DNA from: Uloborus diversus
Taxonomy: Eukaryota
Reading direction: 5' to 3'
Assembly (NCBI RefSeq): GCF_026930045.1
Contig: NC_072740.1
Location: 29,620,384-29,684,383, forward strand
DNA length: 64,000 nt
Positions 3,836-64,000 of the stretch are shown piece by piece. Each line of letters starts with the position of its first letter. Position 1 is the first letter of the stretch. A program made the translations under genes and the position numbers. The notes under the pieces were generated by a model. It was given only the letters and a program-made list of their open reading frames with translations, was not told the origin of the DNA and ran no database searches.

Positions 3836-3999
3836 GTAATTTCTCGAATATTAATATTTCATTGTTTATGCTTTTACTATTTTATTATGTCTTTATCATT
3901 ACATTCATGTATAATGAAACATTTGGAATAGTTCACTGCAAGCAGCTGTTACTTACAATGAGGTGAATAATTATAAGGGGGTTCTTATACTTCAATGGG

Positions 4000-4078
4000 A
4001 TTGATAATTGAGTACAAGCTGCCTAGCTGGGCCAGGAGCCTGTTGTTGATCTTTGCTTTTGTATTTGTGTTTTTATTC
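4000..4078 (+). mobile_element. very short 3'-tail fragment of the CR1-like LINE
   Basis: …gctgcctagctgggccaggagcctgttgttgatctttgcttttgtatttgtg matches the 49600-49670 tail. Confidence 0.6.
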
Positions 4079-4852: not shown

Positions 4853-4995
4853 GTCATGTCATCTGTAAGGAGAACATTCCGTCTGAACAAATTTCTTGTG
4901 TTGCCAAAAATAGTAGCTATGCCACTGATAGAGTACTGTATTCTGATTGGTTTTACACATCTGTTATTGTTGGGATGGAATCTGGAAATATAATA
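4853..4995 (+). CDS. WD40-repeat gene exon (GHVICKENIPSEQISCVAKNSSYATDRVLYSDWFYTSVIVGMESGNII)
   Basis: Acceptor ggaaacag|GT and donor ATA|gtaagc. Phase 1 in, phase 0 out. No stop codons. Confidence 0.6.
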
Positions 4996-19700: not shown

Positions 19701-20424
19701 GTGTGCTATTTAATTAAATGAATAAAGTACAGTTTTTTGAATGATCTTTGTTTATATTAGGAAATGGGCGGAGAGGTTAAAATAAATAGAGACGGATAAA
19801 AAAAAATTTAGAGGTAGATAGCCACTGAAGGTGACAATTTTTGCGTAAAAAGAGGAATGACTCAAATTGCAACTGGAAATAGGTATAGAAAATACGAAAA
19901 AGAAAGATATATATATATCAATTAATTCCGCTGTCAAATTTGTTTAAACAGCCTCTGTAGACAGCAAACTTGGAATAAAAACGGGCGGGGGGGGGGGGGG
20001 GATTTTTTTAATTCAAAGGACTTCCTTTAAATTCTTAGCACGGGCATTGCTGTGCGGGTACTGCTAGTACAATGTATCACAAAAGTGACTGCATTCTCAA
20101 ATGTAATGCTTTTTTTTTTTTATTCCTTTCTAGTAAGAGCTCTAAAGTACCTTTTTCTTTAATTTCTGAAATAGCAAAGCTGTAGTATGGTTCTCCTGCG
20201 ATATTAAAATCCATTAAATATTCATTTCACATGTTGGAAGAAATTTTTAAGTTTTAATTTTTTTTTTTTAAAGAAAGAATCTCATAAATATGGGTAGCAA
20301 TTGTTGCAAACAGTGGAGGGTCAAAAACTACACAACTTCCGAGAATTGGTTGTGCAGTTTTCAGGCCTCAAAGAAACAAACCCAAAGCTATTTTTCTTAA
20401 AACTGGAAAACTTATGAAACAAAA

Positions 20425-21570
20425 GTTTATAATACAAATATGACGACCAGCAACAGGCTCTGGGCCCAACTAGGCTGGTCCTAGTCTGTTTATTAGTCTC
20501 CAATGAAGATCAATGGCCCTCTTAAAGCTATCCACCCCCATACTCATTACCGCCTCTTCCAGTAAGCTATTCCTAGTGCCCACGATCCTACTAAAGAAGT
20601 AATTTTTCCTAATTTCCAGGTTAGCCTGAGATTTGAATAGCTTAAAATAATGACCCTTCATACTGCTTTCTGTGCAAAAATTTAACCCGTTAATATCTTT
20701 CATTTTAATAAATTTAAACACCTGAATCATGTCCCTTCTGACTTTCCTTTGCTCCAGGCCATACATATTAAGCCTATTAAGTCTGTTATAGTCTAAATTT
20801 GAAATTCCCCCTTACTGGTCTAGTAACCCTTCTTTAAACAGTTTCCAATACAGAAATATCTTTCCTGAGGTAAGGAGACCAAAACTGAACAGCAAATTTC
20901 AAGTGATGTCTTACCAAAATCCTATATAAAGGCAGAAGAACGATTTATTCGAAATAGATCTATTGATAAACCCAAGCATTCTGTTGACTTTGTTACTTGC
21001 AATGCTGCGCAATTGACTAAGCTTGAAATCTTTATTAAGATCAATAACGTTTTTTGCCTGACTAATGACCGAACCCTGTAAATAAATAATAACTCATAGG
21101 CTTATTTCCATGACCTAAGTGTAGCACTTGGCATTTCCCTACATTAGCTGCTATACCCCACTTATCCACCCACTTAGTGATATGATCAAAATCCTCTTAA
21201 AGCTGTTTTACATGTTCCTCATTTTCTACTATCCCCATAACTTAACATCATCAGCATAACAATTCATGTTTCCAGAAATATTATCATCAATGTCATTCAT
21301 AAAATTAGTAAACAAAAGAGGCCCTAAAACTGATCCCTGAGCAACCCTGCTTAAAATGTCACTCCGTTTAGAATGATTTTCCCTCACAACTACTGTTTGT
21401 TTTCTTCCAGTCAGTCAATTCCTAACCCAAAGTAAAGTTTTCCAACTTTACTTTACTGTAATGTCAATCCAAATTTACTTTATTATAGTATTTACTATAA
21501 TCAAAACATTCTTCATGCTATTACGCTTTAAAGTTTCAAATCCAAAAGTAATAAGTGTTCCAGAAGTAAC
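20425..21570 (-). mobile_element. truncated, degenerate CR1-like LINE copy (3' part), left arm of an inverted pair
   Basis: The reverse-complement 3' tail is at 20441-20520. The 98-aa ORF 20470-20766 matches the RT C-terminus. The sequence is colinear with the RT region up to ~21570. Confidence 0.75.
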
Positions 21571-22239
21571 CATTGTCATGAGGAGAAAATAACAGTAATA
21601 AACGTCATTAAAAAAATGCTTTTTCATTTATTTTTTATTTATTTCTTATTTAAGATCTTTCTTTTCAATTTAAATGGCAAAAATCATTCACATTCAGCTT
21701 TTCCATGCAGAATTCTTTGATATGTGTGCTTAATTTTTGTGTTTCTTTGAAGCCGTGAAAAAAAGAGGAAATTTCTAACTTTGATTTTTTAAGGGCAAAG
21801 GGAAAAATAAAGTATTTTTCTGATGAAGTACTCTCTATTCTATTGTAAAAAAATACTTTTGATCAAATGAATAAGTAAACTTAATGATGAATGAGCAAAT
21901 GGGAAGATAATGAAACAATAAACGAATAATTAGATTAATTAATTAATATACCATTTATTTTATGATATATTAATTAATTAATCTAATTTATTATCTCATT
22001 AATATTTCATTTATTTTTCCTCATGTATTAATTAACTAATTATTTATTTGTTAGTTTATTGTTTCTTTACCTTTTCATTTATTTTTATATACTTTTATTT
22101 GCTCATTAATTCGTTCAAAAAATTTTTTTACAATCAAATAGAAAGTATTTCATTTGAAAGATGCTTTATAAAGATATATATATATATATATCAATTTATT
22201 CCTCTGTCAAATTTGTTTAAACAGCCTCTGTAGACAGCG

Positions 22240-22880
22240 AACTTCTGGAACACTTATTATTTTTGGATTTGAAACTTTAAAGCGTAATAGCATGAAGAAT
22301 GTTTTGATTATAGTAAATACTATAATAAAGTAAATTTGGATTTACATTACAGTAAAGTAAAGTTGGAAAACTTTACTTTGGGTTAGGAATTGACTGACTG
22401 GAAGAAAACAAACAGTAGTTGTGAGGGGAAATCATTCTAAACGGAGTGACGTTTTAAGCAGGGTTGCTCAGGGATCAGTTTTAGGGCCTCTTTTGTTTAT
22501 TATTTTTATGAATGACATCAATGAAAATATTTCTGGAAGCATGAACTGTTTTGCTGCTGATGTAAAAGTCATGGGATTGTTGAAAATGAAGAACAAGTAA
22601 AACAGCTTCAAGAGGATTTAGATCATATTACTAAGTGGGTGGATAAGTGGGGTATAGCAGTTAATGTAGGGAAATGCCAAGTGCTACACTTAGGTCATGG
22701 AAATAAGCCTATGAGTTATTATTTATTTACAGGGTTCGGTCATTAGTCAGGCAAAAAACGTTATTGATCTTAATAAATCAGGATTTCAAGCTTAGTCAAC
22801 TGTGCAGCATTGCAAGTAACAAAGTCAACAGAATGCTTGGGTTTATCAATAGATCTATTTCGAATAAATCGTTCTTCTAA
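22240..22880 (+). mobile_element. truncated degenerate CR1-like LINE RT fragment, right arm of the inverted pair
   Basis: The forward sequence …caggatcagttttagggcctcttttgtttatt… is the reverse complement of 20860-21570. It encodes the RT motifs in + orientation and includes a frameshift. Confidence 0.75.
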
Positions 22881-23329
22881 GAATTTAAAGGAAGTCCTTT
22901 GAATTAAAAAAATCCCCCCCCCCCCCGCCCATTTTTTATGCCAAGTTCGCTGTCTACAGAGGCTGTTTAAACAAATTTGACAGCGGAATTAATTGATGTA
23001 TATATATATCTTTATTTTTACTTTGCCCCATAAAAAAAAGTGAACATTTTCCACTTTTTTTTTGAATTAACAATTTTCTGCCAAAATAAAAAAATAATGT
23101 TTCAATGTAAGTTTTATTATGAAATACAATGTTCTTTCTTTATGCACTGCAATTTTCAAAACAAATTTCCTATTTGTACATTTTGAAAAAGCTCTGTCAT
23201 CTTAACTATTTCACTTTGCCCCACATTCCCCTACATCAGCAGATGCATCAAGAAATAGGACTCATAATAAAAATATGAGCTGACCTCAGGCATAACATTT
23301 TGATGCCATATATGATCTAGCTGTTTATA

Positions 23330-24400
23330 CAGATACAATACAAATACAAAAGTGACGACCAGCAACAGGCTCTGGGCCCAGCTAGACTGGTCCTAGTCAA
23401 TTTACAATCCCCAGTGAAGATCAATGGCCCTCTTAAAACTATCTACTCCCTTGCTCATTACCACCTCTTCCGGTAAACTGTTCCAAGGTTCCACTACCCT
23501 GCTATAATAATAATTTTTCCTAATATCCATGTTAGCCTGAGATTTAAATAGCTTAAAACAATGACCTCTTGTCCCGTTTTCAGTGCATCAGTGCTAAACT
23601 TCAGCCCTGTAACATCTTTCATTTTAATAAATTTAAACAACTGAATCATGTCCCCTCGGTCTCTTCTTTGCTCAAGACTGTACATTTTTAACCTTCTAAG
23701 CCTGGAATCATAGTCTAAGTGAGAAAGTCCATTTATTAGCCTTGTAGCCCGCCTTTGAACCCTTTCCAATACATTAATGTCTTTCTTAAGATAAGGAGAC
23801 CAAAACTGAACAGCATACTCCAAATGAGGTCTTACCAAACTTCTATATAAGGGCAGAAGAACTTCTTTAGATTTGTTTGAAATAGATCTATTGATAAACC
23901 CAAGCATCTTATTGGCCTTGTTACTAGTAGTGCTGCACTGTTGGCTAAACTTTAAATCCTGACTTATTAAGACCCCCAGATCAGTAACTTTGTCTGCCTG
24001 ACTAATGACTGAACCTTGCAAATAATAACTTGTACACTTATTTCCATGCCCTAAATGTAGCACTTGACATTTCCCAACATTAACAGACATACCCCATTTA
24101 TCAGCCCACTCCGTAATATGATCTAGATCCTCTTGCAGCTGTTTTGCTTGTTCTTCATTATCTACAGTCCCCATAACTTTGACATCATCAGCAAAACAAT
24201 TCATGTTCCCAGAAATATTTTTGTGAATATCGTTCATAAAAACAATGAACAAAACAGGCCCTAACACTGATCCTTGAGGAACCCCGCTTAAAACCTCACT
24301 CCAATTAGAATAATATCCCCTCACTACTACCCTTTGTTTCCTACGTTTGAGGTCATTAGTTTGTTTGCCAGCATAATTTTCATATTTCCCCAATTATTTT
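23330..24400 (-). mobile_element. 5'-truncated copy of the same CR1-like LINE (RT C-terminal region plus 3' tail)
   Basis: The 299-aa minus-strand ORF 23494-24393 is near-identical to the RT segment 48463-49599 (…NCFADDVKVMG…). The reverse-complement tail sits at 23335-23420. Confidence 0.85.
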
Positions 24401-27761: not shown

Positions 27762-30462
27762 GTAAGTATGCATTTCTTAATAGGCTTAATATTTTTTCTT
27801 CTAAACATTCCACATTTTTGATTCAAACAGTTTATTTTTTTCATTTTACATTTCTATGTTATTTTTTTTATTTAGTAGTTATTTATTGTATATTCATATT
27901 TTTCATCTACTTGGTCAAAGGTGCCCAAAGTAGGTGCCACTGTTCCCTTAGTGGCATAGGGAGGGGTTAGTGATGCCGCAAAGTATGACCGGTATCAATA
28001 TACTAGTATATATACAAATGAGATAGACAAGCGTGCTGTGAAAAATTGCATTTTTTCAAAAGGTGCCGCAAATTGGAAAAGTTTAGGAATCCCTGTTTAG
28101 ATTTTAAACTTCAGTGTTTTCCTATTTATTTTAGCTAGTTATCTAAAAGCTATAATCTTTTAATTGAGGGGGAAAAAAACATGCTTAAGATTATATTCAG
28201 TGAATTACCGCCCATGCCTTGCCTTCAATCTTCAAGTTGAACCGACCCATTGCTTCGGTCACTCGTCTGGTCTGCTAATTCTATATTAGTTACCAGTTTG
28301 TTTGGCACTCTTGGCTTCCTTAAGAGGTTTTCTATCTCCAGCTCAGTCACTTTCCTATGACGGGCTGATGAGTGCTAATAAGCACGAAACTGCAGTCCTC
28401 GGCTGGAAATGACTGAGCTGGTAGTGTATTTCATGCTTAAGATTGTTAAAATTAAATTTTGCCTTTTTACAATATTGTAATACAAGCCTTGTTGGATTTC
28501 CACTCAATTGGAAGATTTATGGATTTTAAAATTTTACTCAAAAATGTTTGCTGCTTTTCTTATGTTGAATTTCTCCTTCTCTAGTTATAAATGCACAAAC
28601 TGATACAATCAGACAATCTCTAGGTATCTTATTACATTCCTTCTTCTCTACAGCTTTCACTTTTCAAACATGAACTTAAATTTAGAAGAGCTAGAATGAA
28701 GAACTTTGTTCATCACCATTTGCAGTGTTTTTCAATTTGTATGGTGGAATTATATTAACAAGTTTTTCCCCAGCTGTTTACTGTTCAATATATTGGCAAC
28801 TTCACTTTGAAATTCATTTAATTTTATCACATGCTTTTTCTTGAAGTTTCCTGGCCATGCGTTTGAAGTATGAAAATTTTTCCTAAGTCTTCCCAACATT
28901 TATCAAGCTGGAGCCTTTACCATAAATTCTAAAGTGAGAAACATTTGCAACATGGCTTTGAGCGATAGTTTCATTCTCTGCTCCATTTCTACTTTTGCTA
29001 ATTTTTCTCTTCAAATCTCCATTTTATTCAAATTATTCTTTATTTTCATCTTTTATTAAATTTGCATTTTTCCAACTATCATGTTTTTGGTTTGATATCC
29101 CATATTGTAAAATGTTTATGCATGGCACATTGCTTTATCTCAACCTCTCTTTATGTATCTTTTTTAAGTAACTAAAAGAAAACTTCCCTTTCACAGAGCA
29201 GTTGATGGGTATGTGGAGGAATGGGTCATTATGCATGACTGTGGATAGAACACAATTTCATATTGTTGTTCTCGCTCATTCATTTTCTGAGTAATAGTTC
29301 CACAAAGAGAGTGTATACAGTAAGAAGTATTTTGGCTCCCTTGCTCTGCACCCTTTCGACCTTCAAATTCAAAGACAAAGAACTGAAAATAATTCACAAC
29401 ATTGTAGTTAAGAAAGCTAGTTCCCTCACAAGACAAATAAGGAAGTATTCCATCTTGACAGGATTTTTAATCTGAAAGTAGCAAATATTCTTTTGTTTCC
29501 AATTTACGCAAATTCTGTTTCAACTCTAAGTTGTAAAACATTAATATTCACTGGGACTATTTTTTTTTTCTGTTGAAGGCTTTTTCCATTTCATAGGGGG
29601 TCTGTCCTAGACTTCACTGTAGCAATAATTAAATATTATTAATATTATTATATAAATGGAAAAATTTTTAAAGTTTTAAGTAAAACAGAATAATCATTTT
29701 ATTATTTTGTAGAATCGGTGTACATGCTAGTTATTGTTGTACATTAATGTAAAAAAAGGGAACAAAAAAAAAAAAAAAAAACTTAGAATAATTTAGTGTT
29801 TTAGGCTCATTGCATTATCACTTGTACATTTTGTACTTGAATTTTATTGATATATAAAGGAACAGTCCAGTCTAAAATTTTCGAGACAAAACTGGGTGTA
29901 ACAGCAGTCAATGGGAATTAGTAAAGATTTATGGGTCAGACTTGTTAATAGTTTTCTTCTCTGTTACTGGATTCCATTCTCAAAGCTATGACTGATTAAC
30001 ATCAATCCTCATTTTTGAAAGGAAATGCTATTCTACATTTATGCTGGGCGTAGTTCATGTCATATGGCAGTGAATATATGCATATTCAGTAGCGTACATG
30101 TCTAACCCCTCTTTGCATGGAGTTAACCCTAAAATAGAGTTTAAAAATATTTCGCTGTTTATGAAAGAAATAGACTTTATTTAGGCTGTCTTTTAATAGG
30201 AATGGTCTTTTAGTTGTTATCCAACTGCAGATGCCCCATCATCCCTCTCTACGAGCCATGTCAATATAAGGACTTATGGCTAAGAAGTGAGAATGGGCAA
30301 AGAAAGGCAATTACACATTACACATTAAATAAGCTGGATTTCAACAAATAGGACTATAGGACTACTAATGATATTGTTAAAAATGAAAAGTGTTGTAGTT
30401 GATATAATGTAAATAACAAAAACTATATGTAAATAACTATATATAATTTTTTTTTTTAAAAG

Positions 30463-44989: not shown

Positions 44990-45072
44990 CATGAAATACA
45001 CCGCCAGCTCAGTCCTTTCCACGAAACTGCAGTCCTCGGCTGGAAATAACTGAGCTGGCGGTGTATTTCATG
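44990..45072. repeat. 83-bp perfect hairpin mini-element (catgaaatacaccgccagctcagt…actgagctggcggtgtatttcatg); related partial copy at 28330-28440
   Basis: Palindromic arms by direct reading. A 12-nt direct repeat acgattcagaat lies at 44934-44945 and 45073-45084. Confidence 0.6.
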
Positions 45073-45511: not shown

Positions 45512-45970
45512 ATGGGAGTTATACGCATAATGAAGGAGGTTAAAAGTGGTAAAGGGGACAAGTGGATTTCTTGTGACCTATGTCAGATGTTCTGCTTGTT
45601 TAAGGGAAAGGATGAGTCTGAGAAGGATTTCATTTGCACAAATTGTGTTGAACTCTCAGAAATCAGAGTTAGGATGCTTACTTTGGAGGGTGAGTTAGCA
45701 TTAGGCTGTATGCGTGTAGATGGGGTAAACACTCCAGAGGGAAAGGGGGAAGTTAGCAAAAAGGATGTTGGCATTAGCTGTGTGTTAGATAGTGGGAATA
45801 TTCCAGAATTAAAGGAGGAAGTTAGTAAAAAGGATGTGGGCATTAGCTGTGTGTTAGATAGTGGGAAAATTCCAGAGGTAAAGGGGAAAGTTATTGCTGA
45901 GGCGATTGACTGGGAAACAAAGGGTATAATTTTCGGAGATTCAATGGTGCGTGAGGTGGAAACTCAATAG
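45512..45970 (+). CDS. LINE ORF1 N-terminal part: PHD/zinc-finger-like Cys cluster plus internal 60-nt tandem duplication (EVSKKDVGISCVLDSG×2)
   Basis: The ORF track translation reads WISCDLCQMFC…FICTNCVEL. A direct repeat lies at 45745-45800 and 45805-45860. Confidence 0.6.
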   Translation: MGVIRIMKEVKSGKGDKWISCDLCQMFCLFKGKDESEKDFICTNCVELSEIRVRMLTLEGELALGCMRVDGVNTPEGKGEVSKKDVGISCVLDSGNIPELKEEVSKKDVGISCVLDSGKIPEVKGKVIAEAIDWETKGIIFGDSMVREVETQ

Positions 45971-45987
45971 GCAGAGTTAGACGTAAG

Positions 45988-46416
45988 GTGGCTAGATGTT
46001 GTTTGCCAGGGGCTCGGGTGAGAGATGTAAAAAGGGTTGCTGAAAAGAAGGGGGTATTTAATAAAGAGGATGTAGTTACTTTGTGGGTGGGAACTAACGA
46101 TGTAGGCCATAGTAACAACGATGAGTTTACAAAGGAATGGGATTCCCTGTTGGACAAAGCAACCAACTGTTCGGCAAATGTCCAAGTGGTTGGTTTGCTT
46201 CCCAGGTATGGAGTGCATAGGAGTTGGTTAAACCAACGGGCTAGGTGTATGAACCTGGTACTCAAGGAAATTTGCGTTAAGCGTAGAATCAGGTTTATTG
46301 ATGTGTGGAGTAAATGTAAACGAGATTGGATTGCTAGGGATGGCCTGCATCTGAGTTCTACAGGGGTCAAAATGGTTAGTGGTTTGGTTTTAGAGGCTTC
46401 AGAATCAAAAAACTAA
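45988..46416 (+). CDS. LINE ORF1 esterase (SGNH hydrolase-like) domain, frameshifted relative to the upstream part
   Basis: The LWVGTNDV block and an NRRARCMN…DGLHLS-type C-terminus match esterase domains described for CR1-like ORF1 proteins. Confidence 0.6.
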   Translation: MARCCLPGARVRDVKRVAEKKGVFNKEDVVTLWVGTNDVGHSNNDEFTKEWDSLLDKATNCSANVQVVGLLPRYGVHRSWLNQRARCMNLVLKEICVKRRIRFIDVWSKCKRDWIARDGLHLSSTGVKMVSGLVLEASESKN

Positions 46417-46475: not shown

Positions 46476-47756
46476 TTGAGTAGAAACAGAAATAGGGTGT
46501 CCAATAAGAGTAAAGATTTTAACAGCTGGGATTCAAACAATCGTGCAGCATTAAATAAAAGTAAGATGGGCTTACTTAAGGTTTTTTATACAAATGCTCG
46601 TAGTATTAGGAACAAGATGGAAGAATTGAAAAGCATAATTATAGACGAGAGGTTGGATATTATTGGAGTTACCGAGACATGGGCTACCGAAAGTGATGAT
46701 GATTTATTATCTATTGCTGGGTATAATTTGTTTAGACAAGATAGAGTAGGTAAAAGAGGTGGTGGGGTTTTATTTTATGTCAGAGACACTTTAATTTGCA
46801 ATGAATTGGTAATTAATGATAAACCTAATGAGATTGATATGATTTGGCTGGAGTTGATTAGTAATAAGGGCAAAAAACTACGTTTAGGGAATATTTATAG
46901 GCCACCCAACTTAAGCCAGGGTGAAGACGAACAGATGTTTAGTATTATTAGTGACATTTCTAGCAAGGGGTCAGTCTTCATAATGGGAGATTTTAATTTT
47001 CCAGGAATTGATTGGAATAATTTTGACCGTAGTAATAGCAGAGAAGAGGAATTTTTGAAAGTAATTGGTGACTGTTTCTTAGATCAAATTGTAACTCAGG
47101 GTACTCAACAGGACGCGATTTTGGATCTAGTTTTCTGTGACATGGAAGGCTCTGTTCAGGGGTTATGTGTAGGGGAACACATTGGAGATAGTGACCACAA
47201 CAGTATTAGGTTTGGGATTAAATTTGATATGCACAAAGTAGAGAATTTTAGGTTTGTGCCCAATTTCAGAAATACTGACTTTGTGGCACTTCGGCAGAGT
47301 TTGAAAGCAGTTTTTTCTTCTGGATTGGACAATAGCGATGTGAATCTTCAGTGGGCAGAGTTTAAGGAAAATCTAGCGAATACGGTTAGAGATCATGTTC
47401 CTTTTAGGAGAAAAGGTGTCAACACTAAAATTTGGCCAATGTGGTTCTCCAGGGAAACTAAAGACGCTCTAAATTACAAGCAAGCTGCTTTTCATAGGTT
47501 TAGAGAAACAGGTCACAGTGCAGATAGGCTCCAGTATTGTAAGGCAACGCGTAAATTTAAGTATTTGGTACGGATTCAGAAAAGAGAGTTGGAGCAAAGA
47601 CTGGCAGATAACATAAACAGGAATCCCATGAGGTTTTTTGCATACACTAATTCGGGGAAAGTTCGAAATAGTCATATTGGGCCACTGGTTGATGAGCACG
47701 GAATTTTGATTCAGGACGATAGTGATATTGCTAATGTTCTTAATAACTTTTTTTGA
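46476..47756 (+). CDS. LINE ORF2 apurinic-like endonuclease domain plus linker (pseudogene fragment)
   Basis: A 426-aa ORF contains the EN motifs (IIGVTETW, GDFNFP, DSDHNSI). Confidence 0.75.
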   Translation: MSRNRNRVSNKSKDFNSWDSNNRAALNKSKMGLLKVFYTNARSIRNKMEELKSIIIDERLDIIGVTETWATESDDDLLSIAGYNLFRQDRVGKRGGGVLFYVRDTLICNELVINDKPNEIDMIWLELISNKGKKLRLGNIYRPPNLSQGEDEQMFSIISDISSKGSVFIMGDFNFPGIDWNNFDRSNSREEEFLKVIGDCFLDQIVTQGTQQDAILDLVFCDMEGSVQGLCVGEHIGDSDHNSIRFGIKFDMHKVENFRFVPNFRNTDFVALRQSLKAVFSSGLDNSDVNLQWAEFKENLANTVRDHVPFRRKGVNTKIWPMWFSRETKDALNYKQAAFHRFRETGHSADRLQYCKATRKFKYLVRIQKRELEQRLADNINRNPMRFFAYTNSGKVRNSHIGPLVDEHGILIQDDSDIANVLNNFF

Positions 47757-48245
47757 GTGTTTTTAACGATAACTGTATCTCAACAGTTGACACCAACAAG
47801 GCACAAGCTATAGTACAGCTTGAGGACTTTGTATTTTCCAGGGATGACGTTTTACTTCATTTGAAAAAAATTAAAGAGACTAAGGCTCCGGGGCCAGATA
47901 ATATTTATCCGAAAATTTTAGTTGAATGTGCAGAGGAATTAGCAGATGTAATCGCAAACATTTTCAATGCTTCTTATAATTCGGGGACAGTGCCAGAGGA
48001 CTGGAAGCTGGCTAACATTACACCGCTCTTCAAGAAAGGGTCTAAAGGGAGTGTGGGAAATTATAGACCTGTGAGTCTAACTTCGGTGGTTTGCAAAATT
48101 TTTGAAACATAGATGAAAATTAAGATAGTAAATTTTCTAGAGACTAATAATCTATTGACTAGTTTTCAGTACGGTTTCAGGAAAGGTAAATCTTGTGCAA
48201 CTAATTTATTACATTTCTATGACAAAGTTACCAGTGGCGTAGCTA
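47753..48245 (+). pseudogene. LINE ORF2 reverse-transcriptase N-terminal segment, truncated by the MITE insertion
   Basis: The frame …PGPDNIYPKIL…NYRPVSLTSVVCKIFE…FQYGFRKGKSCATNLLHFYDKVT then runs into the inserted element. Confidence 0.7.
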
Positions 48246-48278
48246 GACCCGACTTTCGGGGGGGGGGGGGGGGTTACT

Positions 48279-48360
<82 letters not shown>

Positions 48361-48494
48361 AATCGCTTGGAATTTTTTCCTTTTCTTCTTTTTTTTCCCT
48401 TTCTCTTCTCTCTTCTTTTTCTCTTTTTTTTTTGAGACTAACTTTTCGGGGGGGGGGGGGGTTTGTCCCCAAAACCCCCCCCCCCCCCCCCCTT
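48246..48494. mobile_element. ~250-bp non-autonomous TIR element (MITE-like) inserted into the LINE RT; carries (AT)n(GT)n and poly-G tracts; flanked by a ~10-bp TSD aaagttacca
   Basis: The left end 'cagtggcgtagctagacccgactttcgggggg…' pairs with the right end '…cccccccttagctacgcccctg' as an imperfect TIR. A direct repeat AAAGTTACCA lies at 48231-48240 and 48495-48504. The RT motif FYDKVT|TALD is continuous once the insert is removed. Confidence 0.75.
48286..48360. repeat. compound microsatellite (AT)~28(GT)~10 inside the inserted MITE
   Basis: Direct reading of the sequence. Confidence 0.95.
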
Positions 48495-49599
48495 AGCTAC
48501 GCCCCTGAAAGTTACCACGGCTTTGGACAATAAGAAGCCTGTAGATGTTGTTTACATTGATTTTCAAAAAGCTTTCGATAAGGTACCGCATGTTGCTCTA
48601 CTTAGCAAATTAGCTGATATGGGAATAGGAGGGAAAACTTTCATTTGGGTAAAAAACTGGCTGACCGGAAGGAAACAAAGAGTAGTTGTAAGGGGAAATT
48701 ATTCTAATTGGAGTGAGGTCTTAAGCGGCGTTCCTCAAGGATCAGTGTTAGGGCCTGTTTTGTTCATTGTCTTTATGAACGATATTCACAAAAATATTTC
48801 TGGGAACATGAATTGTTTTGCTGATGATGTCAAACTTATGGGGACTGTAGAAAATGAAGAACAAGCAAATCAGCTGCAAGAGGATCTAGATCATATTACA
48901 GAGTGGGCTGATAAATGGGGTATGGCTGTTAATGTTGGGAAATGTCAAGTGCTACATTTAGGGCATGGAAATAAGTGTACAAGTTATTATTTGCAAGGTT
49001 CAGTCATTAGTCAGGCAGACAAAGTTACTGATCTGGAGGTCTTAATAAGTCAGGATTTAAAGTTTAGCCAACAGTGCAGCATTGCTAGCAACAAAGCCAA
49101 TAAGATGCTTGGGTTTATCAATAGATCTATTTCAAATAAATCTAAAGAAGTTCTGCCCTTATATAGAAGTTTGGTAAGACCCCATTTGGAGTATGCTGTT
49201 CAGTTTTGGTCTCCTTATCTTAAGAAAGACATTAATGTATTGGAAAGGGTTCAAAGGCGGGCTACAAGGCTAATAAGTGGACTTTCCCACTTAGATTATG
49301 ATTCCAGGCTTAGAAGGCTAAAAATGTACAGTCTTGAGCAAAGAAGAGACCGAGGGGACATGATTCAACTGTTTATATTTATTAAAACGAAAGATGTTAC
49401 GGGGCTAAAGTTTAGCACTGAAAACAGGACAAGGGGTCATTGTTTTAAGCTATTTAAATCTCAGGCTAACATGGATATTACGAAAAATTATTATTTTAGC
49501 AGGGTAGTGGAACCTTGGAACAGCTTACCGGAAGAGGTGGTAATGAGCAAAGGAGTAGACAGTTTTAAGAGGGCCATTGATCTTCACTGGGGATTGTAA
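48495..49599 (+). pseudogene. LINE ORF2 reverse-transcriptase core/C-terminal segment (resumes after the insertion)
   Basis: …TTALDNKKPVDVVYIDFQKAFDKVPH…NCFADDVKLMG…; the stop codon is at 49599. Confidence 0.75.
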
Positions 49600-51559
49600 A
49601 TTGACTAGGACCAGTCTAGCTGGGCCCAGAGCCTGTTGCTGGTCGTCACTTTTGTATTTGTATTATTGGTTACTAATAGTTAAAAAAAATTAAATTAAAA
49701 GTGCTATTAAATTAGCATTCTGACCGAAGGCATTTTGTAAAAATACTTTAAACTCCCGATCATCCGAGAGCAGCTTATCTGTGACCTTTCACACTTACTT
49801 TCAGAAAAAAAAAAACGACGATTAGCTGAATGTAAATAAATGCACACATTTTAACTTAGCAAGTGCAAAATTTTCTTTTTAGACATTCTTATTGCTTTCT
49901 TCGCCCTCCCTTCCAATGTCATTAAACACTTTATTTTGGATGTTTGAAGTTACCTACTGTGATTTTTTTCAGTTCATATGCTTGCACGATTTGCACGTGT
50001 ATGTGTGTAATCTATTTGCAGTAATGAGCGATCTTTTTCTACCTTTTACATGCACTGATATCGTTTTAGCAACAGTTTTAATGTGTGCGAGTGTTATTTA
50101 TCTTTTGAAGCACTATTTGCATACACTAGCATCGTTTTTACCTGATTTGCAAACTATCTGCAATTCATTAACAATCATAAGAAAACTGGCTCAAAGACAT
50201 TGGAAGAAAATTTGAAACTATTTTGTGAAAATTAGGAGAACGAAGAAAAATAAATTGTCTCTCAGAAATAAGCCATTAACTCTTTATATCAAAAAAAAAA
50301 AAAAAAAAAAAAACTGGTGCAGAAACTAGTAGAATAAAAAATAATCACCATGATCATTAATCGGCTCTGCCGATTAATCGGGTGATTACCAATTAATCGC
50401 CCGATTATCAACAGATGATTAATTGGTAATAGGTCTCTTTGCTTATCGTAGCGATAAATTTTATTTTTTATCATAACCCATTGCACTCACTTTCTCTTGT
50501 TAAAATCGCCTATACATGCCATTGCTGTTCTTCAGAGATATCCTGAAAAATAACATAAACGAAAGCTTGTCAAAACTAGTCTACAGAATACACCCAGGCA
50601 TTGGAAGTTGTCCTCCCCCCCCCCCCCTTGAACTATTTCTTCCTTTTTATTTTTTAAAAAATACTGACTCAATTAAAGGTTTTCGATGAACAAATTATAG
50701 TATTAAAGGCACATTGAAAATTAGCTTACAAATATTGAGTATAAACACATTCATAGTGTCTAATACGAAAAATATATTATGTGTAATGAAATATCACTAT
50801 AAAGAATACTATTTTATGCCAATGCTGTTTTATCTATATATGAGGAGTTTACTTTCAAAATGGAGTATATCCACTTTTGGAAAAAAAAAAAACTTTTTTT
50901 GTTTTCAGAATCTCTAGTATACGCCCTATGGACCCAAGAATTTTTTTCTTCTCGAAGTGGTTTATATCTACTGTTAAAAAATGTGTAAACATTGGTTTAC
51001 CACCTAAATGGTGTATATCCATCCTCTTATTTCTCGCCAGGTCTTTTACAGCAAAGTAGAACTTATCCCTTATTTGCCGATATCCACTTATTCACTTTCC
51101 TATCAAAAGGGTACATACTCAAATTTGAATTTGCCACTTCCAGTTCAAAAGTAGTTCACAAATAAAATAGCTCAGCAAGGCATTGGCTGAGCATTTCCAA
51201 TCAAGCATGATACCTGTCTATATTAAGAGATCGCAGCATCTTGCGCAAGTCTGTTAAGGCAAGCGAGACCTCAAATAGTTATTACTGAATTAATATTAAA
51301 TATTTGATATTACTATTAAATTGTGATTAATCAATGATTAAATTGTGATTAATTGTAAACTATTAATGCCTTCAACGTTGTTATTTGAATCAGCTTTTGT
51401 GGTTTCATTGTTCATACTTAATTGGATCAAAGATCCTTTTTTTAAATATTCAATGAAAAGAATAAAGTAAGTAGGATAGAATAAAGTATAGTTAAAAAAA
51501 TATATATTAAAAATGTTGAATATTTTTTTCAATTTTAAAGTTTATTTCTGAAGAAAATG

Positions 51560-57287: not shown

Positions 57288-57880
57288 GATAAAGTGAATG
57301 AGCCGCTTTAATGAATTAAATCTCCGAAAACAAAATGGAATCCAGCTTTAACATTAAAAAACTGTCGAATGATTGAATCAAACACGCCGCTTAAATGAAT
57401 CAAGAGTATCTGAGTAACCATTTTCCAGAAACATGTTGTGCATCAGCGCAGTCTTTTTTTCTGTGCCTTCATTTAGAAAAGTGAGCCTTTTCTTTTGTGT
57501 GTGTGTGTGCATGTGTTTTCCCCCTTTTTTTGCAAGCAGTGAAAAGAAGGGGTTCAGAGCATCTGCTCCCATATGCAGTGGCGGATAAAGTGAATGAGCC
57601 GCTTTAATGAATTAAATCTCCGAAAACAAAATGGAATCCAGCTTTAACATTAAAAAACTGTCGAATGATTGAATCAAACACGCCGCTTAAATGAATCAAG
57701 AGTATCTGAGTAACCATTTTCCAGAAACATGTTGTGCATCAGCGCAGTCTTTTTTTCTGTGCCTTCATTTAGAAAAGTGAGCCTTTTCTTTTGTGTGTGT
57801 GTGTGCATGTGTTTTCCCCCTTTTTTTGCAAGCAGTGAAAAGAAGGGGTTCAGAGCATCTGCTCCCATATGCAGTGGCGG
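57288..57880. repeat. perfect tandem duplication of a ~297-bp unit containing a (GT)n microsatellite
   Basis: 57288-57584 and 57585-57880 are identical by eye. The ORF-track peptides 57378-57572 and 57674-57928 are also identical. Confidence 0.9.
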
Positions 57881-57960
57881 ATTGGTTGAAAAAATCGGCC
57901 CTGGCATTAAGAGATGTAGCGGCCCCATAGCTCTTATAGATTAGTAGGGTGGCATATTAC

Positions 57961-59413
57961 ATTCCGTAGGAAATTTCCCCCCCCCCCGTGAGGAAATTGT
58001 GAGACCAATTCTATTATGTTCCTTATGGCCTGTGTAACTATGCCTCACCGGGTGTTTTGCTTGAATTTGTGTCAGACGACCTGTATGACGTCATCAATCC
58101 AAGATGGCGGCTGTAATGAGTTTTTGCAATTCTGACTCAATTTTTGGGTATTTTGTGATAATTTTCTGGTAAATTTGCTTGATTAATATTCTATTACTTT
58201 TCTTATTATAAGTTGAAAGTAAAATACCTAATTTATTTGTTTATTAACTCATTTAAAAAAAAATTCTGAAGTCTTCATTTTTGACTTTGACATTCAGAAT
58301 AAGCTAGTTTAAAAGTACCTCGGGTGCGTTTTTGCAGTTAAAAATACTGTTAATTTTGAGGCTAAAATGATTAAACATTAGTACAGTCGAACCTCGTTAA
58401 TTCGGACACGCTTATAACGAATTACTGCTATAGCGAACTACATTTACGATCCCCGTCCTACTGTACTTACACTTACACTATTTTTTTTTTTTTTTTTTCA
58501 AATAACCCACAATTTCAAGGCCCACAATGCTTTGGAGGCCCCTCCTCTCTATTCTATCACCTTAAGTCAATGCAAAATAATGTTTAACAATATTTTAGAG
58601 GTATGTTTTCAAATAAATCATTTTTTGTGCTTCTGAGTCCATTTTAAAACTAGTTCGATGCAGCTGCGTAAAAGGAAAATGCATTGTTTCATGTAAATGC
58701 AAATCTCAATCACTGAACTTTGTGTGTGAAGATGATGAGGACTTATGTGAAAATCATAGCCAACAAAGCGATATTTGATAACGCTTCAGATGAAGATATC
58801 TTTAAGTAAGAACTGTTTGTTTACCTTTAAATCTATATTTTGAACTAAAATCAGAGTTTAGATAATGAAATCAATCATTCATTACTTGAGTACATAAATA
58901 AAATTATTATTATATCTAATATTAAGCATCGGAAGTTGAAATTTCTTTCTGCATTGAAAAAGAATGCTCCTTATAACCCCGAAACGCGTGTATGCAAATT
59001 ATTTTACAGGTTTTTTGGAATAATAAATTTGATTCTATCGTACTAGCTTTCCAAAATATTTTTTAACTGTTATTGGTTACTAAAAAGGTTCATAAAATCT
59101 GCATCGAAACAAAAAATAAATAAATGAATAACTTATTTTAAATTGGCAATTAGTTCTCAAATTTGAAACATCATTGTATTAAAATATTGAATATATAAGA
59201 TAAGTTGAAAAAATGTCATAATATGCATCAAAAATCAGTTAAAACCGAAAATTTTCATCAATATCTAGTGCAGCCGCCATCTTGGATTCATGACGTCACA
59301 CAGGCCATCTGACACAGGTTCAAGCAAAACACCCGGTGAGGCATAGTTATATAGGCCATAAGGAATGTATTAGAATTGGTCTCACAATTTCCTCACGAAA
59401 TTTCCCACGGAAT
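57961..59413. mobile_element. non-autonomous DNA transposon with ~145-bp terminal inverted repeats
   Basis: 57961-58113 (attccgtaggaaatttc…gtgaggaaattgtgagacc…tgacgtcatcaatccaagatggcggctg) is the reverse complement of 59271-59413. The ~1.15-kb AT-rich interior has no transposase ORF. The TSD is not resolvable. Confidence 0.8.
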
Positions 59414-59959
59414 TCCTTAAGTACGCAACTGGACTAAGATATTAAATTTTACCTAACGATTGGGATATCACTTAAATATGAGGAAATTATTCTTAACAAC
59501 TGAATTTGTTGTATTTAAACAAAATTTAACAGATAGGAACGCTTCTGCGCTTTATTGGTGAACAAATTGATACAGTATTAGCTAAACAATAATTTGGAGA
59601 AAATTGTGATTGTAATTGTCCATTTAAGTATTTTTATAACGCCCGGAACTTGATTGATTATTTTTGTAATGATAACACTGCTTGGCCAGTATGTCCTATT
59701 CTGCAGTTATAATAAGTAACTTAATTGCTCTGTTTTATGAAACTGATCTAGCGATGTTCATTACTGAGCCCTGTCATAAACATTCCCTTTTTTATACTGC
59801 CATACCCTGACGACCCCCAGACTCGATGCGAGGTCAAAAACATGGTGGTAGGGGTCGGGTACGAGTTTGGCAGCTCCTTATTTATTTATTTATTTTTTTC
59901 AAACGCATGTATCAATACAAAGAGATAGAGTGGACTTAGCTTTCTGGCTTGTAGGAGAC

Positions 59960-60760
59960 ATTAAAGTATTAACATTGAATCTGAAGGGGGGGGGGGGTCC
60001 TTTTCCTCGGAAATTTTTTGAAATTGCAGTCTTAAAAACTCAATTTTAGACAGTATTTGGGGATGTTAGGGGAGCGTAGGTTCAGGGTTTCTCCTGCTGC
60101 AATTTTTCGGAATTAAGAAATCCAAAAACAGAATTTTAAATTATCTTCGAGTATATGGTATAAAGAGCGATTCCGGGGAATCTCCTCTGAAATTTTTTAA
60201 AAAAATATTAGCTCTGAAAACGCAGTTTTAGAAGATCTTTGGTGATTTTAAGTCGAGATAGTTCCGAGGCCATCCACCAGAAAATTTTCAAATTTAAGTC
60301 TTAAAAGCCTTTTTTGGTAAAGACTAGGGTTAGACAGTTACTCGAAAGTTAAGTTTCAAAAACGAAATTTTTGCTTACCTTCAGTGATATTAGGAAAAGG
60401 AGTTTTCAGGAGGCTCACCCCGGAAAATTTTCGAAATTAAAGAACTAAAAACAAGACTTAAAACGTTCTTCACTGATGATGCCGGAGAGAGAGGAGGGAA
60501 CGGGGCACTTTCCCAGAAAATCTTTGATACTGTTAATTTAAAAACACAGTTTTAGACCATCTTTGGGAATGTTAAAAAAGCGGGAGAGGTTCGAGTACTT
60601 TCCTCCAGCAAATTTTCGAAGCTTTAATTCCATATTATGGCGGGAGTGGATTCGGCTGTTCTCTTATGAAGTTATTCAAAATTAAAGCCAAAAAATTTAA
60701 ATTTTACACGATCTTCGATGATATTAGGAGGAGGGGGGGGGGGGGGAGGTTCTGGGGACA
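59960..60760. repeat. degenerate minisatellite, ~7 units of ~110-120 bp (…ggaaaattttcgaaatt.aag…aaaac…atttta.a..atcttcg.tgat.ttagg…)
   Basis: The motif 'aattttc(g/a)aa…ttaa…ttta…atctt…gat…tagg…gg' recurs every ~115 bp. G-runs are at 59986 and 60728. Confidence 0.6.
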
Positions 60761-62589
60761 ACCGGAATTCTTTTGACATTGGTTTTTACTTCCTTTTAGA
60801 AAAAAGGAAGTATTGTATTCGCGAAAAAAATTTCACTCAAAAATTAACCTTAATTTCCATTTTTCTCACTCCCGAATGAATGTTGAGTTTTTTTTTTGAC
60901 CCGACCACACGTGGATATATGCCGAGGAACGTACAGACACCCGAAATATCTATTTTGACGACCCCCGAGTTAATTACAACGAATTTTCTCGTGACGTCTG
61001 TATGTACGTATGTATGTGCGTATGTGTATATGTATCTCGCAAAATTCAAAAACGGTATGTCCTAGAAAGTTGAAATTTGGTACGTAGACTCCTAGTGGGG
61101 TCTAGTTGTGCACCTTCTCTTTTGGTTGCATTCGGATGTTCCTAATTGGGTCTTTTGCCCCTTTTTGGGGGGAAATCATTGTTAATTTCGATATAAACTC
61201 AAGTTGTCTTATAATTTGTCGGACACTTGGCGATATATCGCCAGTCTTTTGGTTGCCAACTTGACGACAAATTTGGTGATTTTTTTTTTTAATTTGGTTT
61301 CACTTTGGCTACTGTTGGTGATAGTTAGAAAGTAAACAATTAAATCACATTAAAATTGCCAATAATGGGGAAATGACATTAAATTGGAGTAAAAGGAAGT
61401 CATGTGATGCACACATCAGCTCGTTATCAACTTATTTTCTTTTTAAACTGAAGGGCCCGAAACCGTGAGTTTGTACAGTGTACAGAATACTTTATGTATC
61501 GTCAAAAAATGTTTGAAACTCACATTTCGGCGGCCTTTGGCCTTTGTTTTTATAATCTTAATAATGAAGAGCTTTCATACTCCTCAATGGTATTTTAAAA
61601 TTGCATTTTTTAAAATAATTTTACGTAAAAAAATATTTTGTCACTTTTATTCCAATTGTTATAAACAGGGTTGCTGAGAGCAAAAGCAAATCCGGGAAAA
61701 AAATGACATAGGTCAATTGTTTCACAGGCCCCCCTTCTACACCTTTTACATTAGGATACTTTACCCTCTGCACGAGTTTTCCGAGCCGGGCCCCTATTCT
61801 CCAAGTAAGTTGACATGACCTCACGTCAGCCCTCGTTGTAGGTTGCATTTTTTGTCAATTGTCATTTATAAATAAAAGTATCAAAGAGACCAAAAGTATT
61901 TTATCTTTTTTCGACCGCTAAGGTTTCCATGTTTTTTTTTTTTTTTTTTTTTTTTAGATTTATTCATTTATTTTTTTTATTACACCACTAAAAATATATT
62001 GGCAGCTCCAGGGCCCGAATAACTAAAACTGAGGTCCTAGGCCCACATTAATTTGGAGGCCCCATGAAGACTCTGCAATGTTTGATTTACATTTTTAAAG
62101 CACGAATACACTTTTGGAGGCCTCTTTGTCTAATCACACAACTATGTATAGATCACTTATGTGCATTTATGAATCCCCTTTGGGCCCCTTCATAATCGTG
62201 ACCAAGTAAATTCGTTGGTAACCAAGTAAATTTATTTTTAGGGAAATACATGTATTTTTCATATCGGTGCAATGCTATGCATAATTCTTTAAAAAAATTT
62301 AGGCCCTTTAGGAATATGGGGCCCTAGGCCTAGACCGACAGCCTGTGCGGTAATCAGGCCCTCGGTAGCCCTTTTTCAGAAATCCCCCTTGGTGACGGCC
62401 CTGCCTCCCTCCACCCGCAAGCTTTAGCCCAAGCGTAAAGAGGAGCTGAGGCTGTGTTTTGCGAATTTGCGGTACTCTAAACACATGCACGCAAAATTTA
62501 CATTTTGCTGTTAGCAGACAGGCCCGAAAGACTTTGCTGTTAGTTGATCGGCCCGAAGCATGACCGGCCCACCGGGCAAATGCCCGGTT

Positions 62590-62890
62590 GCCCGCCGGCT
62601 GTATCCGCCACTGCCCATATGCAAAATTTTAAGGGGGGGGGGGGCTGAGATATTTTCCCCATGCATGGTTTAGCAAGATATTTTCCGCATAGAAACTGAT
62701 TTCAGTACAAATTTGAGTTATTAAACTTTGAAATTTTTAATAACTTATTCATTAATGGAAGAATTTTTTTTTTTTTTTTTTTTTTTGCATTTTTGCAAAG
62801 GAAAAAGTACTAAAAGCAAGGAAGTTCTAATTTCTAAGGGAGCGGTGGGCTTGAGCTCTTATTTGCCCCCTATATTGGCGCCTAAACACA
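62590..62890. mobile_element. second copy of the same MITE family (diverged TIRs, internal poly-T expansion)
   Basis: ~80% colinear with 8209-8465 (ccatatgcaaaattttaaggggg…ttccccatg…gatttcagtaca…aataacttattcattaatgg…gcatttttgcaaag…aaagcaaggaagttct…). Confidence 0.7.
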
Positions 62891-64000
62891 GATATAAAAT
62901 GGTGGACCAATTCAGGCTTGCCACGGGACATGTTGCATACCTAAACACCTACATCGTTTCAACAGTGGCGTAGCTAAGGTGGGGCGAAGGGGGCGGTCCG
63001 CCCCGGGCGGCATACTTTTGGGGGCGAGGTGAAAAAAAAATCTAAACAACGAACTCATACTTCAAATCTATTACTGGAGGAAAAAAAATTCTATGAAATA
63101 TAAGGTTTCGGTATAACTATACGACTACGCTTCTCAGTGTTCAAAGTTGAAATATTTCCGTAGTGATCCTCTGAACCTTCCTCATTCTCTTAACGTTCTC
63201 AAATATAGACTTAAATTGCATTTTTATAACGTAAATTTTGGAAAATATTTCAGAAAAGACTCCGTCTTTCTAACGTCAACAAAGGTTGAAACTGACTTCA
63301 GTTTGTTCGCCCCCCCCCCTTTCCCCAAACATCACTTTTAACTTCGATTTTTTGATGTAAATTTAAAATATTTCTCCGGGATACAGGCACGTAGCTAGAA
63401 CTTTGTTAAGGGGGGGGGTCCAAGGTTGCACGAACTTCAAAAGAGGAGGCATGCTAAAGCAGAATTAGTAGCTGATAATTACACAAGACTAAGATAAATC
63501 CAATTAAAACTGATCATTAAAATATGATAATTAATTAAAATTAATTAAATAATTGAAATTAATAGAGTCATTAGTTAAAATTAGTTAACAAAAAGTTTAT
63601 GTTAAGTGGTAAATTAATTATTGTCAGTTTGTAAATTAACATTAAACTGAAGGTTATCACATACAAAGTTTCCAAATATGGGTGAACCTTTGTCCTCCTG
63701 AAAATAAGTGATATATTTTCTATTAATAAAAAGGGCACAATAAAAGAAAAACGGAAAACGAAAACTGTTCTAGAAATTACTTGGAAAATGCATGCGATAA
63801 TTTAATAAAATATTAAAGCTTTGTAATATATTTCAACAAAATATGTACATTTGTACTTATGCCATTTTTTTTGAAAACTAGAAAGTCACCCGTCAAGGCA
63901 TGACGGGTGAAAATTGCTTCAACTCTTCTTCATTTGAACGAAGCAATTGCCTGTTTGGTGATATTTTGATAGTTGAAATTTTAACTCTAACACCAGTGCA

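Follow-up and report, generated by a model that had tools for sequence, protein, structure and literature searches.

A 276-bp element of probable hAT type nested in the reverse transcriptase gene of a decaying CR1-clade LINE of Uloborus diversus

We analysed a window of 64 kb from Uloborus diversus (contig NC_072740.1, positions 29,620,384 to 29,684,383 of the forward strand; all coordinates below are those of the window), in which a long interspersed nuclear element (LINE) is interrupted within its reverse transcriptase (RT) gene. The interrupting sequence (48232–48507, + strand, 276 bp) carries terminal inverted repeats (TIRs), is flanked by an exact direct repeat and entered the LINE after the LINE's own insertion. 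We consider it with good confidence to be a non-autonomous hAT-like DNA transposon lying within the RT of a CR1-clade LINE which is full-length, yet already decaying. Its place is most probably in the hAT superfamily, with the elements known in the silkworm as 'Pegasus-like'. A first-pass annotation had described a small TIR element splitting the RT of a CR1-like LINE. This description is upheld by the endonuclease and RT domains of the host, by its CR1 homologues and by a collinear junction. The window is eukaryotic and repeat-rich, with about 32% G+C and nearly without long open reading frames (ORFs), and the insertion is an ordinary case, within an AT-rich animal genome, of one repeat nested in another.

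At 48.2–48.5 kb the junctions are laid out as TTCTATGAC AAAGTTACCA GTGGCGTAGCTAG ... CTTAGCTACGCCCCTG AAAGTTACCA CGGCTTTGGAC. The exact 10-mer AAAGTTACCA is present twice in the whole 64 kb, at 48224–48233 and 48508–48517, in agreement with the exact flanking repeat of the first-pass annotation. With a per-base match probability of 0.28, a 10-mer repeat at a fixed offset has a chance of about 3e-6. The two 10-mers are separated by 274 bp, or 276 bp when CA is counted into the TIR, and not by the 249 bp given at first; likewise, the limits first drawn at 48231–48504 were about 3 nt too far left. Deletion of 48234–48517 (the insert and one copy of the repeat) gives a single RT frame reading ...HFYDKVTTALDNKKPVDVVYIDFQKAFDKVPH..., as had been proposed, and the uninterrupted LINE target would then read TTCTATGACAAAGTTACCACGGCTTTGGAC. 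When present, the insert breaks the RT frame and brings in stops.

The junction was further compared with that of CR1 relatives. All of the 80 metagenomic loci retrieved cross it in a single tblastn high-scoring segment pair, 79 of them ungapped and the last one with a gap away from the site, and the insert TIR was absent from these 80 loci. The alignment across FYDKVT|TALD is residue by residue for named CR1 proteins of birds and turtles and for the two closest metagenomic proteins. Since CR1 relatives align collinearly across the junction, the 274-bp segment is not an ancestral part of the RT. The check on an empty site in other copies of the LINE, suggested by the first-pass annotation, thus gave a divided answer: no copy of the same family that was found spans the site, whereas the more distant CR1 relatives are uninterrupted in every case.

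The left TIR CAGTGGCGTAGCTA (48232–48245, +), with terminal CAGTG, and the right TIR (48494–48507), which reads CAGGGGCGTAGCTA on the − strand, are identical at 13 of 14 positions and were correctly called imperfect at first pass. From the left TIR inwards, the element consists of GACCCGACTTTC, a G16 run (48258–48273), a (TA)28(TG)10 microsatellite detected by TRF (48284–48339 and 48340–48359), a CT-only tract of 61 nt (48373–48433), GACTAACTTTTC, a G14 run (48448–48461), GTCCCCAAAA, a C18 run (48475–48492) and the right TIR. The microsatellite and the three homopolymers of the earlier description are therefore all present, with the correction that on the + strand two of the runs are G and one is C. 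Together, homopolymer, microsatellite and CT-only sequence make up about 70% of the insert, which contains one internal direct repeat (ACTTTCG16TT / ACTTTTCG14TTT). It has no credible coding capacity, the ORFs crossing it being low-complexity read-through. As single-stranded DNA it is predicted to form a hairpin closed by a terminal stem (−53.5 kcal/mol, z = −9.1). No Rfam family was matched anywhere in the window, so that the insert is not a recognisable short interspersed nuclear element or tRNA-derived element. Small size, lack of coding sequence, TIRs, a target site duplication (TSD) and a stable hairpin characterize a miniature inverted-repeat transposable element (MITE), and the insert shows them all.

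A scan without prior bias, for an inverted 9-mer core with an exact 8-bp flanking repeat, also recovered the insert, while Markov-simulated windows gave on average 0.3 matches. Besides palindromic artefacts in two long inverted repeats, the scan returned just two elements, 48232–48507 and 57576–62613. Allowing at most one mismatch, the 10-nt core GGCGTAGCTA occurs five times in the window compared to 0.9 expected, and the complete 14-nt TIR recurs at two other sites (chance expectation 0.9–1.3 motif matches). One of these solo termini (62963–62976, +) is an exact copy of the left TIR CAGTGGCGTAGCTA, followed by AGGTGGGGCGAAGGGGGCGG; the other (4914–4927, −) reads CAGTGGCATAGCTA, with one mismatch. 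A degenerate related terminus, CAGGCACGTAGCTA (63384–63397, +), has three mismatches and is followed 12 nt further on by a G9 run. Its layout of TIR, about 12 nt and G-run is that of the left end of the insert. Related termini had been announced at 62950–62965 and 63388–63400; they do exist, at the coordinates given here, and the end at 4914–4927 comes in addition. The interiors next to the solo termini differ from one another, and no partner end or TSD was found for them within the window. A BLAST comparison of the insert with the window yielded, apart from the termini, only low-complexity matches.

Two sister elements provide further information on the target sites. The first (57576–62613, +) is a non-coding element of about 5.0 kb, without any ORF of more than 85 amino acids, and with TIRs (CAGTGGCGGAT... 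/ ...ATCCGCCACTG) of the same group as those of the insert. It is flanked by the exact repeat CCCATATG(CA), that is CCCATATGCA, at 57568–57577 and 62614–62623, the TSDs being 57568–57575 and 62614–62621. It sits within the second copy (62614–62886) of a 262-bp MITE family. Upon removal of the 5-kb element and one repeat copy, the flanks rejoin and align at about 77% with 8200–8461, where an intact GCGCCCATATGCAAAATTTT represents the empty site. The second sister element is this other copy of the 262-bp family (8200–8461, +; TIR CAAGGGCGCCCATAT / CAAGGGTGCCCATAT; TSD ATTTCAGC / ATTCCAGC at 8192–8199 and 8462–8469), which was recovered by a relaxed scan limited to YARNG termini. Its host is one unit of a diverged array of about 277 bp, and the adjoining units keep an uninterrupted AAATATTTYAGYAATTTATTC, providing paralogous empty sites. 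Because the neighbouring units are empty and the right TSD is followed by AA, the TSD of this element is 8 bp only, the element itself beginning with CA. Subterminal G-runs recur among these elements, in the arrangement TIR, about 12 nt and G-run at 48258 and 63410, and as TTTTAAG5-12 in the 262-bp family, with lengths that vary by copy.

The superfamily assignment depends on how the flanking repeat is divided between element and target. The first-pass annotation counted a TSD of 10 bp, and the exact repeat is indeed 10 nt long. However, the CA that ends it, with the next G, complements the final CTG of the element, which leads to symmetric CAG...CTG termini and an 8-bp TSD AAAGTTAC. The left copy (48224–48231) is then continued by the exact repeat through CA to 48233, and the right copy (48508–48515) is followed by a host CA at 48516–48517, no strand being assigned to either. 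An 8-bp TSD and YARNG termini are structural hallmarks of hAT elements, as described for Anolis DNA transposons (PMC3014272), and YARNG fits both insert termini (CAGTG and CAGGG). One could instead delimit the element as GTGGCG...CCCCTG with a true 10-bp TSD AAAGTTACCA, which would place it outside hAT, for example among Mutator-like elements with their TSDs of 9–11 bp. The 10-nt length of the exact repeat speaks for this delimitation, the more so as the second CAGTGGCG-type element also shows it (CCCATATGCA, ending in CA). Nevertheless, the two ends would then be out of symmetry by 2 nt, the core GGCGTAGCTA lying 2 nt inside one but 4 nt inside the other, and CA also precedes the core at all three solo termini (62963, exact 14-mer; 4927, one mismatch; 63384, three mismatches). 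Moreover, empty sites show the TSD of the related 8200–8461 element to be 8 bp, and silkworm MITEs with the same TIR type are tabulated with 8-bp TSDs and TIRs starting CAG (PMC2997013). The TIRs are 14 nt, and the long TIRs of Mutator type, often >100 bp, are absent. A Mutator-like element thus appears improbable. The 8-bp TSD, and hence a hAT-like element, is the better reading, although not formally separable from the 10-bp one at this locus, since both models predict the same sequence at both CAGTGGCG-type loci.

The hAT-like assignment was compared with described elements. In the silkworm (Bombyx mori), a survey reported four 'Pegasus-like' MITE families with 8-bp TSDs (Han et al. 2010, PMC2997013). 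Among them, BmMITE-15 (300 bp, 8-bp TSD) has the TIR CAGTGGCGTACCTA, those of BmMITE-14 and -16 are CAGTGGCGGATTA and CAGTGGCGGATTT, and that of BmMITE-13 is CAAGGGCGGATCCAG (PMC2997013). The TIR of BmMITE-15 matches CAGTGGCGTAGCTA of the insert at 13 of 14 positions; CAGTGGCGGAT of the 5-kb element is of the BmMITE-14/-16 type, and the CAAGGGCG type of the 8200–8461 element resembles BmMITE-13. As far as TIR strings and TSD alone are compared, the insert has the arbitrary 8-bp TSD and the CAGTGGCG/CAAGGGCG-type TIR by which 'Pegasus-like' elements are defined. In contrast to BmMITE-15, the 276-bp insert is dominated by G/C homopolymers and microsatellites. With hAT non-autonomous elements, such as maize Ds1 and Anolis carolinensis hAT-N (PMC3014272), it has in common the 8-bp TSD, YARNG, short TIRs (11–16 nt), the lack of coding capacity and a presumed mobilisation in trans. 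Past its first 5–6 nt, however, the insert TIR is unlike the Charlie-like CAGGGGTCCCCAAAC and CAGTGRTTCCCAAA, and no preference of the NTCTAGAN type is seen in the TSDs of the window. A literature search with TIR 11–12-mers gave unrelated primer matches only.

Two other origins were considered. The insert could be a P-superfamily MITE that depends on a P-type (THAP) transposase, an enzyme which likewise leaves 8-bp TSDs. The canonical P-element TIR is 31 bp long and starts with CATGATG, which counts against this origin, and no P-like sequence was noticed in the window, where no systematic search for one was made. P elements and P-MITEs of Anopheles gambiae do have perfect 8-bp TSDs, the P-MITE ends deriving from an autonomous class II element (PMC1562414), and the label 'Pegasus-like' names no superfamily in the silkworm paper (PMC2997013). 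But the Anopheles P-MITEs carry P-element TIRs, whereas the CAGTG and CAGGG of the insert fit the hAT YARNG (PMC3014272); we therefore regard a P-type MITE as unlikely. A still smaller chance is left for an origin without transposition: the segment could be ancestral to the LINE family, could have entered as filler or during repair, with a duplication arising by chance, or could have been assembled wrongly from low-complexity reads. While the large share of low-complexity sequence in the insert and the failure to find a same-family empty site could be explained in this way, the 80 CR1 relatives have no gap at the junction, and the insert breaks the frame and adds stops. In addition, its boundaries are formed by a specific 14-nt inverted repeat which recurs twice elsewhere in the window, and the window contains two sister elements with validated empty sites. 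An ancestral LINE segment, a Mutator-like element with a 10-bp TSD and an assembly artefact were rejected on these and the preceding arguments, the 10-bp reading being kept as a minor rival.

Several observations nevertheless weigh against a hAT-like MITE inserted in this LINE. Concerning the empty site, the other LINE copies in the window (24342–23337, 21443–20431, 22365–22870, 6433–6246 and 3990–4074) all begin downstream of it and provide no empty site at the nucleotide level. No full-length copy of the same family was found, the best protein match having 60% and the best metagenome locus 62% identity; viral contigs gave no same-family copy, a degenerate empty-site pattern had no match in genome contigs, and three ORFs of the window, looked up as exact sequences, had no match on record. 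Concerning the TSD, both CAGTGGCG-type elements are flanked by an exact repeat of 10 nt that ends with CA (AAAGTTAC+CA at 48224–48233/48508–48517; CCCATATG+CA at 57568–57577/62614–62623). Under the 8-bp model this shared extra CA needs a coincidence (about 1/256) or a target preference N8|CA. The hAT target consensus is nTnnnnAn for Ac-type and nnnTAnnn for Buster-type elements, and AAAGTTAC, CCCATATG and ATTTCAGC do not fit either consistently, these being three sites only. Concerning the mobilising enzyme, no transposase or autonomous partner was found in the window, and a motif regular expression for the hAT C-terminal ER.FS-type motif found no match in the whole window. MITEs form homogeneous families of many copies in a genome; the family which the insert was said to define is represented in the window by a single complete copy of the exact type, together with two or three solo termini. 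Finally, 8-bp TSDs are likewise produced by P elements (PMC1562414).

The host is a CR1-clade LINE, as judged by its apurinic/apyrimidinic endonuclease (APE) and RT domains and by its closest relatives, which are CR1. It extends from about 45.5 to 49.67 kb. ORF1 (45512–46416, +) is split at about 45968–45990, by a frameshift or stop, into 45512–45970 and 45988–46416; the second piece gives a GDSL/SGNH esterase Pfam match and the first one contains the GDS block. CR1-like ORF1s are reportedly able to carry an esterase, and the ORF1 of this LINE has one of GDSL type. Within ORF1, an in-frame tandem duplication was observed at 45733–45893 (69–73 nt, 2.3 copies, 88% matches by TRF), with the repeated peptide EVSKKDVGISCVLDSG(N/K)IPE. 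ORF2 (46476–49599 overall, Pfam matches Exo_endo_phos, Exo_endo_phos_2 and RVT_1) is divided by the insertion into an upstream part with the APE and the N-terminal RT (46476–48231, +) and a downstream part (48508–49666, +) with the remaining RT, the C-terminal domain, the stop at 49597–49599 and the 3′ untranslated region. Apart from the insert, ORF2 has suffered a frameshift of 1 nt, within the T-run at about 47745–47755, and has a TAG stop at 48110–48112. With both ORFs damaged, the LINE cannot be called nearly intact, as it had been at first pass.

The 3′ untranslated region ends with TTTGTATTTGTATT, without poly(A). In an alignment of five copies, the common 3′ end, ...CACTTTTGTATTTGTATT, falls at about 49666, and short direct repeats take the place of poly(A). 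A 5′-truncated copy of the same CR1 family (23337–24342, −) is 95% identical to 48670–49664 and begins downstream of the insertion site; in the window, four copies other than the interrupted LINE are 5′-truncated. The reconstituted RT has bird and turtle CR1 proteins as top named matches, with about 50% amino acid identity over 80–95% of the RT (E = 1e-244 to 1e-150). In common with CR1-clade LINEs, among them bird and turtle CR1 and CR1-like elements with an ORF1 esterase, the host LINE has an ORF2 with APE and RT, a GDSL esterase in ORF1, a poly(A)-less 3′ end and many 5′-truncated copies. Given that no relative above about 60–62% identity was found (60% in the protein search and 62% among metagenome loci), its family is undescribed or unsampled. 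Just upstream of the LINE, at 44990–45072, lies an 83-nt near-palindrome (86% self-complementary), one arm of which is 94% identical to 28383–28435; it probably represents a further small repeat of the foldback or MITE-like type.

Other repeats of the window were noted along with the sister elements. The interior of the 5-kb element contains nested 127-nt inverted repeats (57987–58113 / 59271–59397, 91%) and an array of repeats of about 150–180 bp (60035–60727). At its left end, 57288–57882 is a perfect (100%) 296-bp tandem duplication which copies the left flank of this element together with its TSD and the initial 8–11 nt of its TIR, with GAT microhomology at the junction. Because of this duplication the 5-kb element has two candidate left ends, 57576 and 57872. 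The duplication may stem from an error of assembly or else have arisen very recently, by repair or aberrant transposition. The array that hosts the 8200–8461 element (about 7090–9240) counts about 7–8 units of about 277–290 bp with 60–78% identity and 1–2 G-runs of 9–16 nt per unit; it is missed by TRF and lies within a G+C-richer, G-skewed stretch at 6–10 kb. Over the 64 kb at 32% G+C, G or C homopolymers of 9–18 nt number 34 compared to about 0.01 by chance (for example at 7768, 19987, 22914, 48258, 48475, 53197, 60733 and 62633). They are mostly located in or beside repeats, often 2–20 nt inside CAG-type termini, and their length differs among copies of the same family. A large inverted duplication at about 19943–22971 holds CR1 3′ fragments in its arms (21443–20431, −; 22365–22870, +), with matching G15/C13 runs at 19987 and 22914.

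If the insert is a hAT-like MITE, its arrival would have followed the usual route of such elements. An autonomous relative would provide, in trans, a hAT-type transposase to bind the TIRs and subterminal sequence, excise the element and integrate it at a staggered 8-bp cut in GAC AAAGTTAC CACGG, and gap repair would then duplicate AAAGTTAC. The sole consequence was to disrupt further an already defective RT gene, through the addition of 284 nt, which shifts the frame and introduces stops. With respect to dating, the insertion of the MITE postdates that of this CR1 copy, and in this sense the insertion is datable as claimed in the first-pass annotation. It was also said to be recent. The perfect repeat of 8–10 nt, the 13/14 TIR match and the pure (TA)28 fit a youngish insertion. 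However, a perfect TSD of this length dates poorly, and at a divergence such as that of the LINE copy, which over 1 kb shares 95% identity with a sister copy, the TSD would be expected to be intact in any case; recency is thus not demonstrated.

On its LINE sense strand, the insert displays a GT start (48234), a CTAAC branch-point-like motif (about 48437), the 61-nt pyrimidine tract and C18. The first AG past the insert end is at 48510–48511, in the duplicated target, and removal of 48234–48511 (278 nt) would leave an in-frame gain of 6 nt. From such motifs, the insert might act as an 'introner', bringing or co-opting splice signals for its removal from host transcripts. This is most improbable: as a donor, CCA|GTGGCG matches the metazoan consensus poorly, and other lesions have already killed the host LINE.

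As a kind of element, the 276-bp insert is well known, and its significance extends little beyond annotation. For the source genome, CAGTGGCGTAGCTA with its 8-bp TSD can serve as a TIR seed for the repeat library, and the insert can be used to probe for the autonomous hAT element by which it must have been moved. That the three TIR types here and in the silkworm are nearly identical may point to a single hAT lineage of wide distribution, possibly spread by horizontal transfer. Taken together, the silkworm-like TIRs and the presence within 64 kb of three nested insertions that belong to one TIR group suggest an abundant and widely distributed group of hAT-related MITEs.

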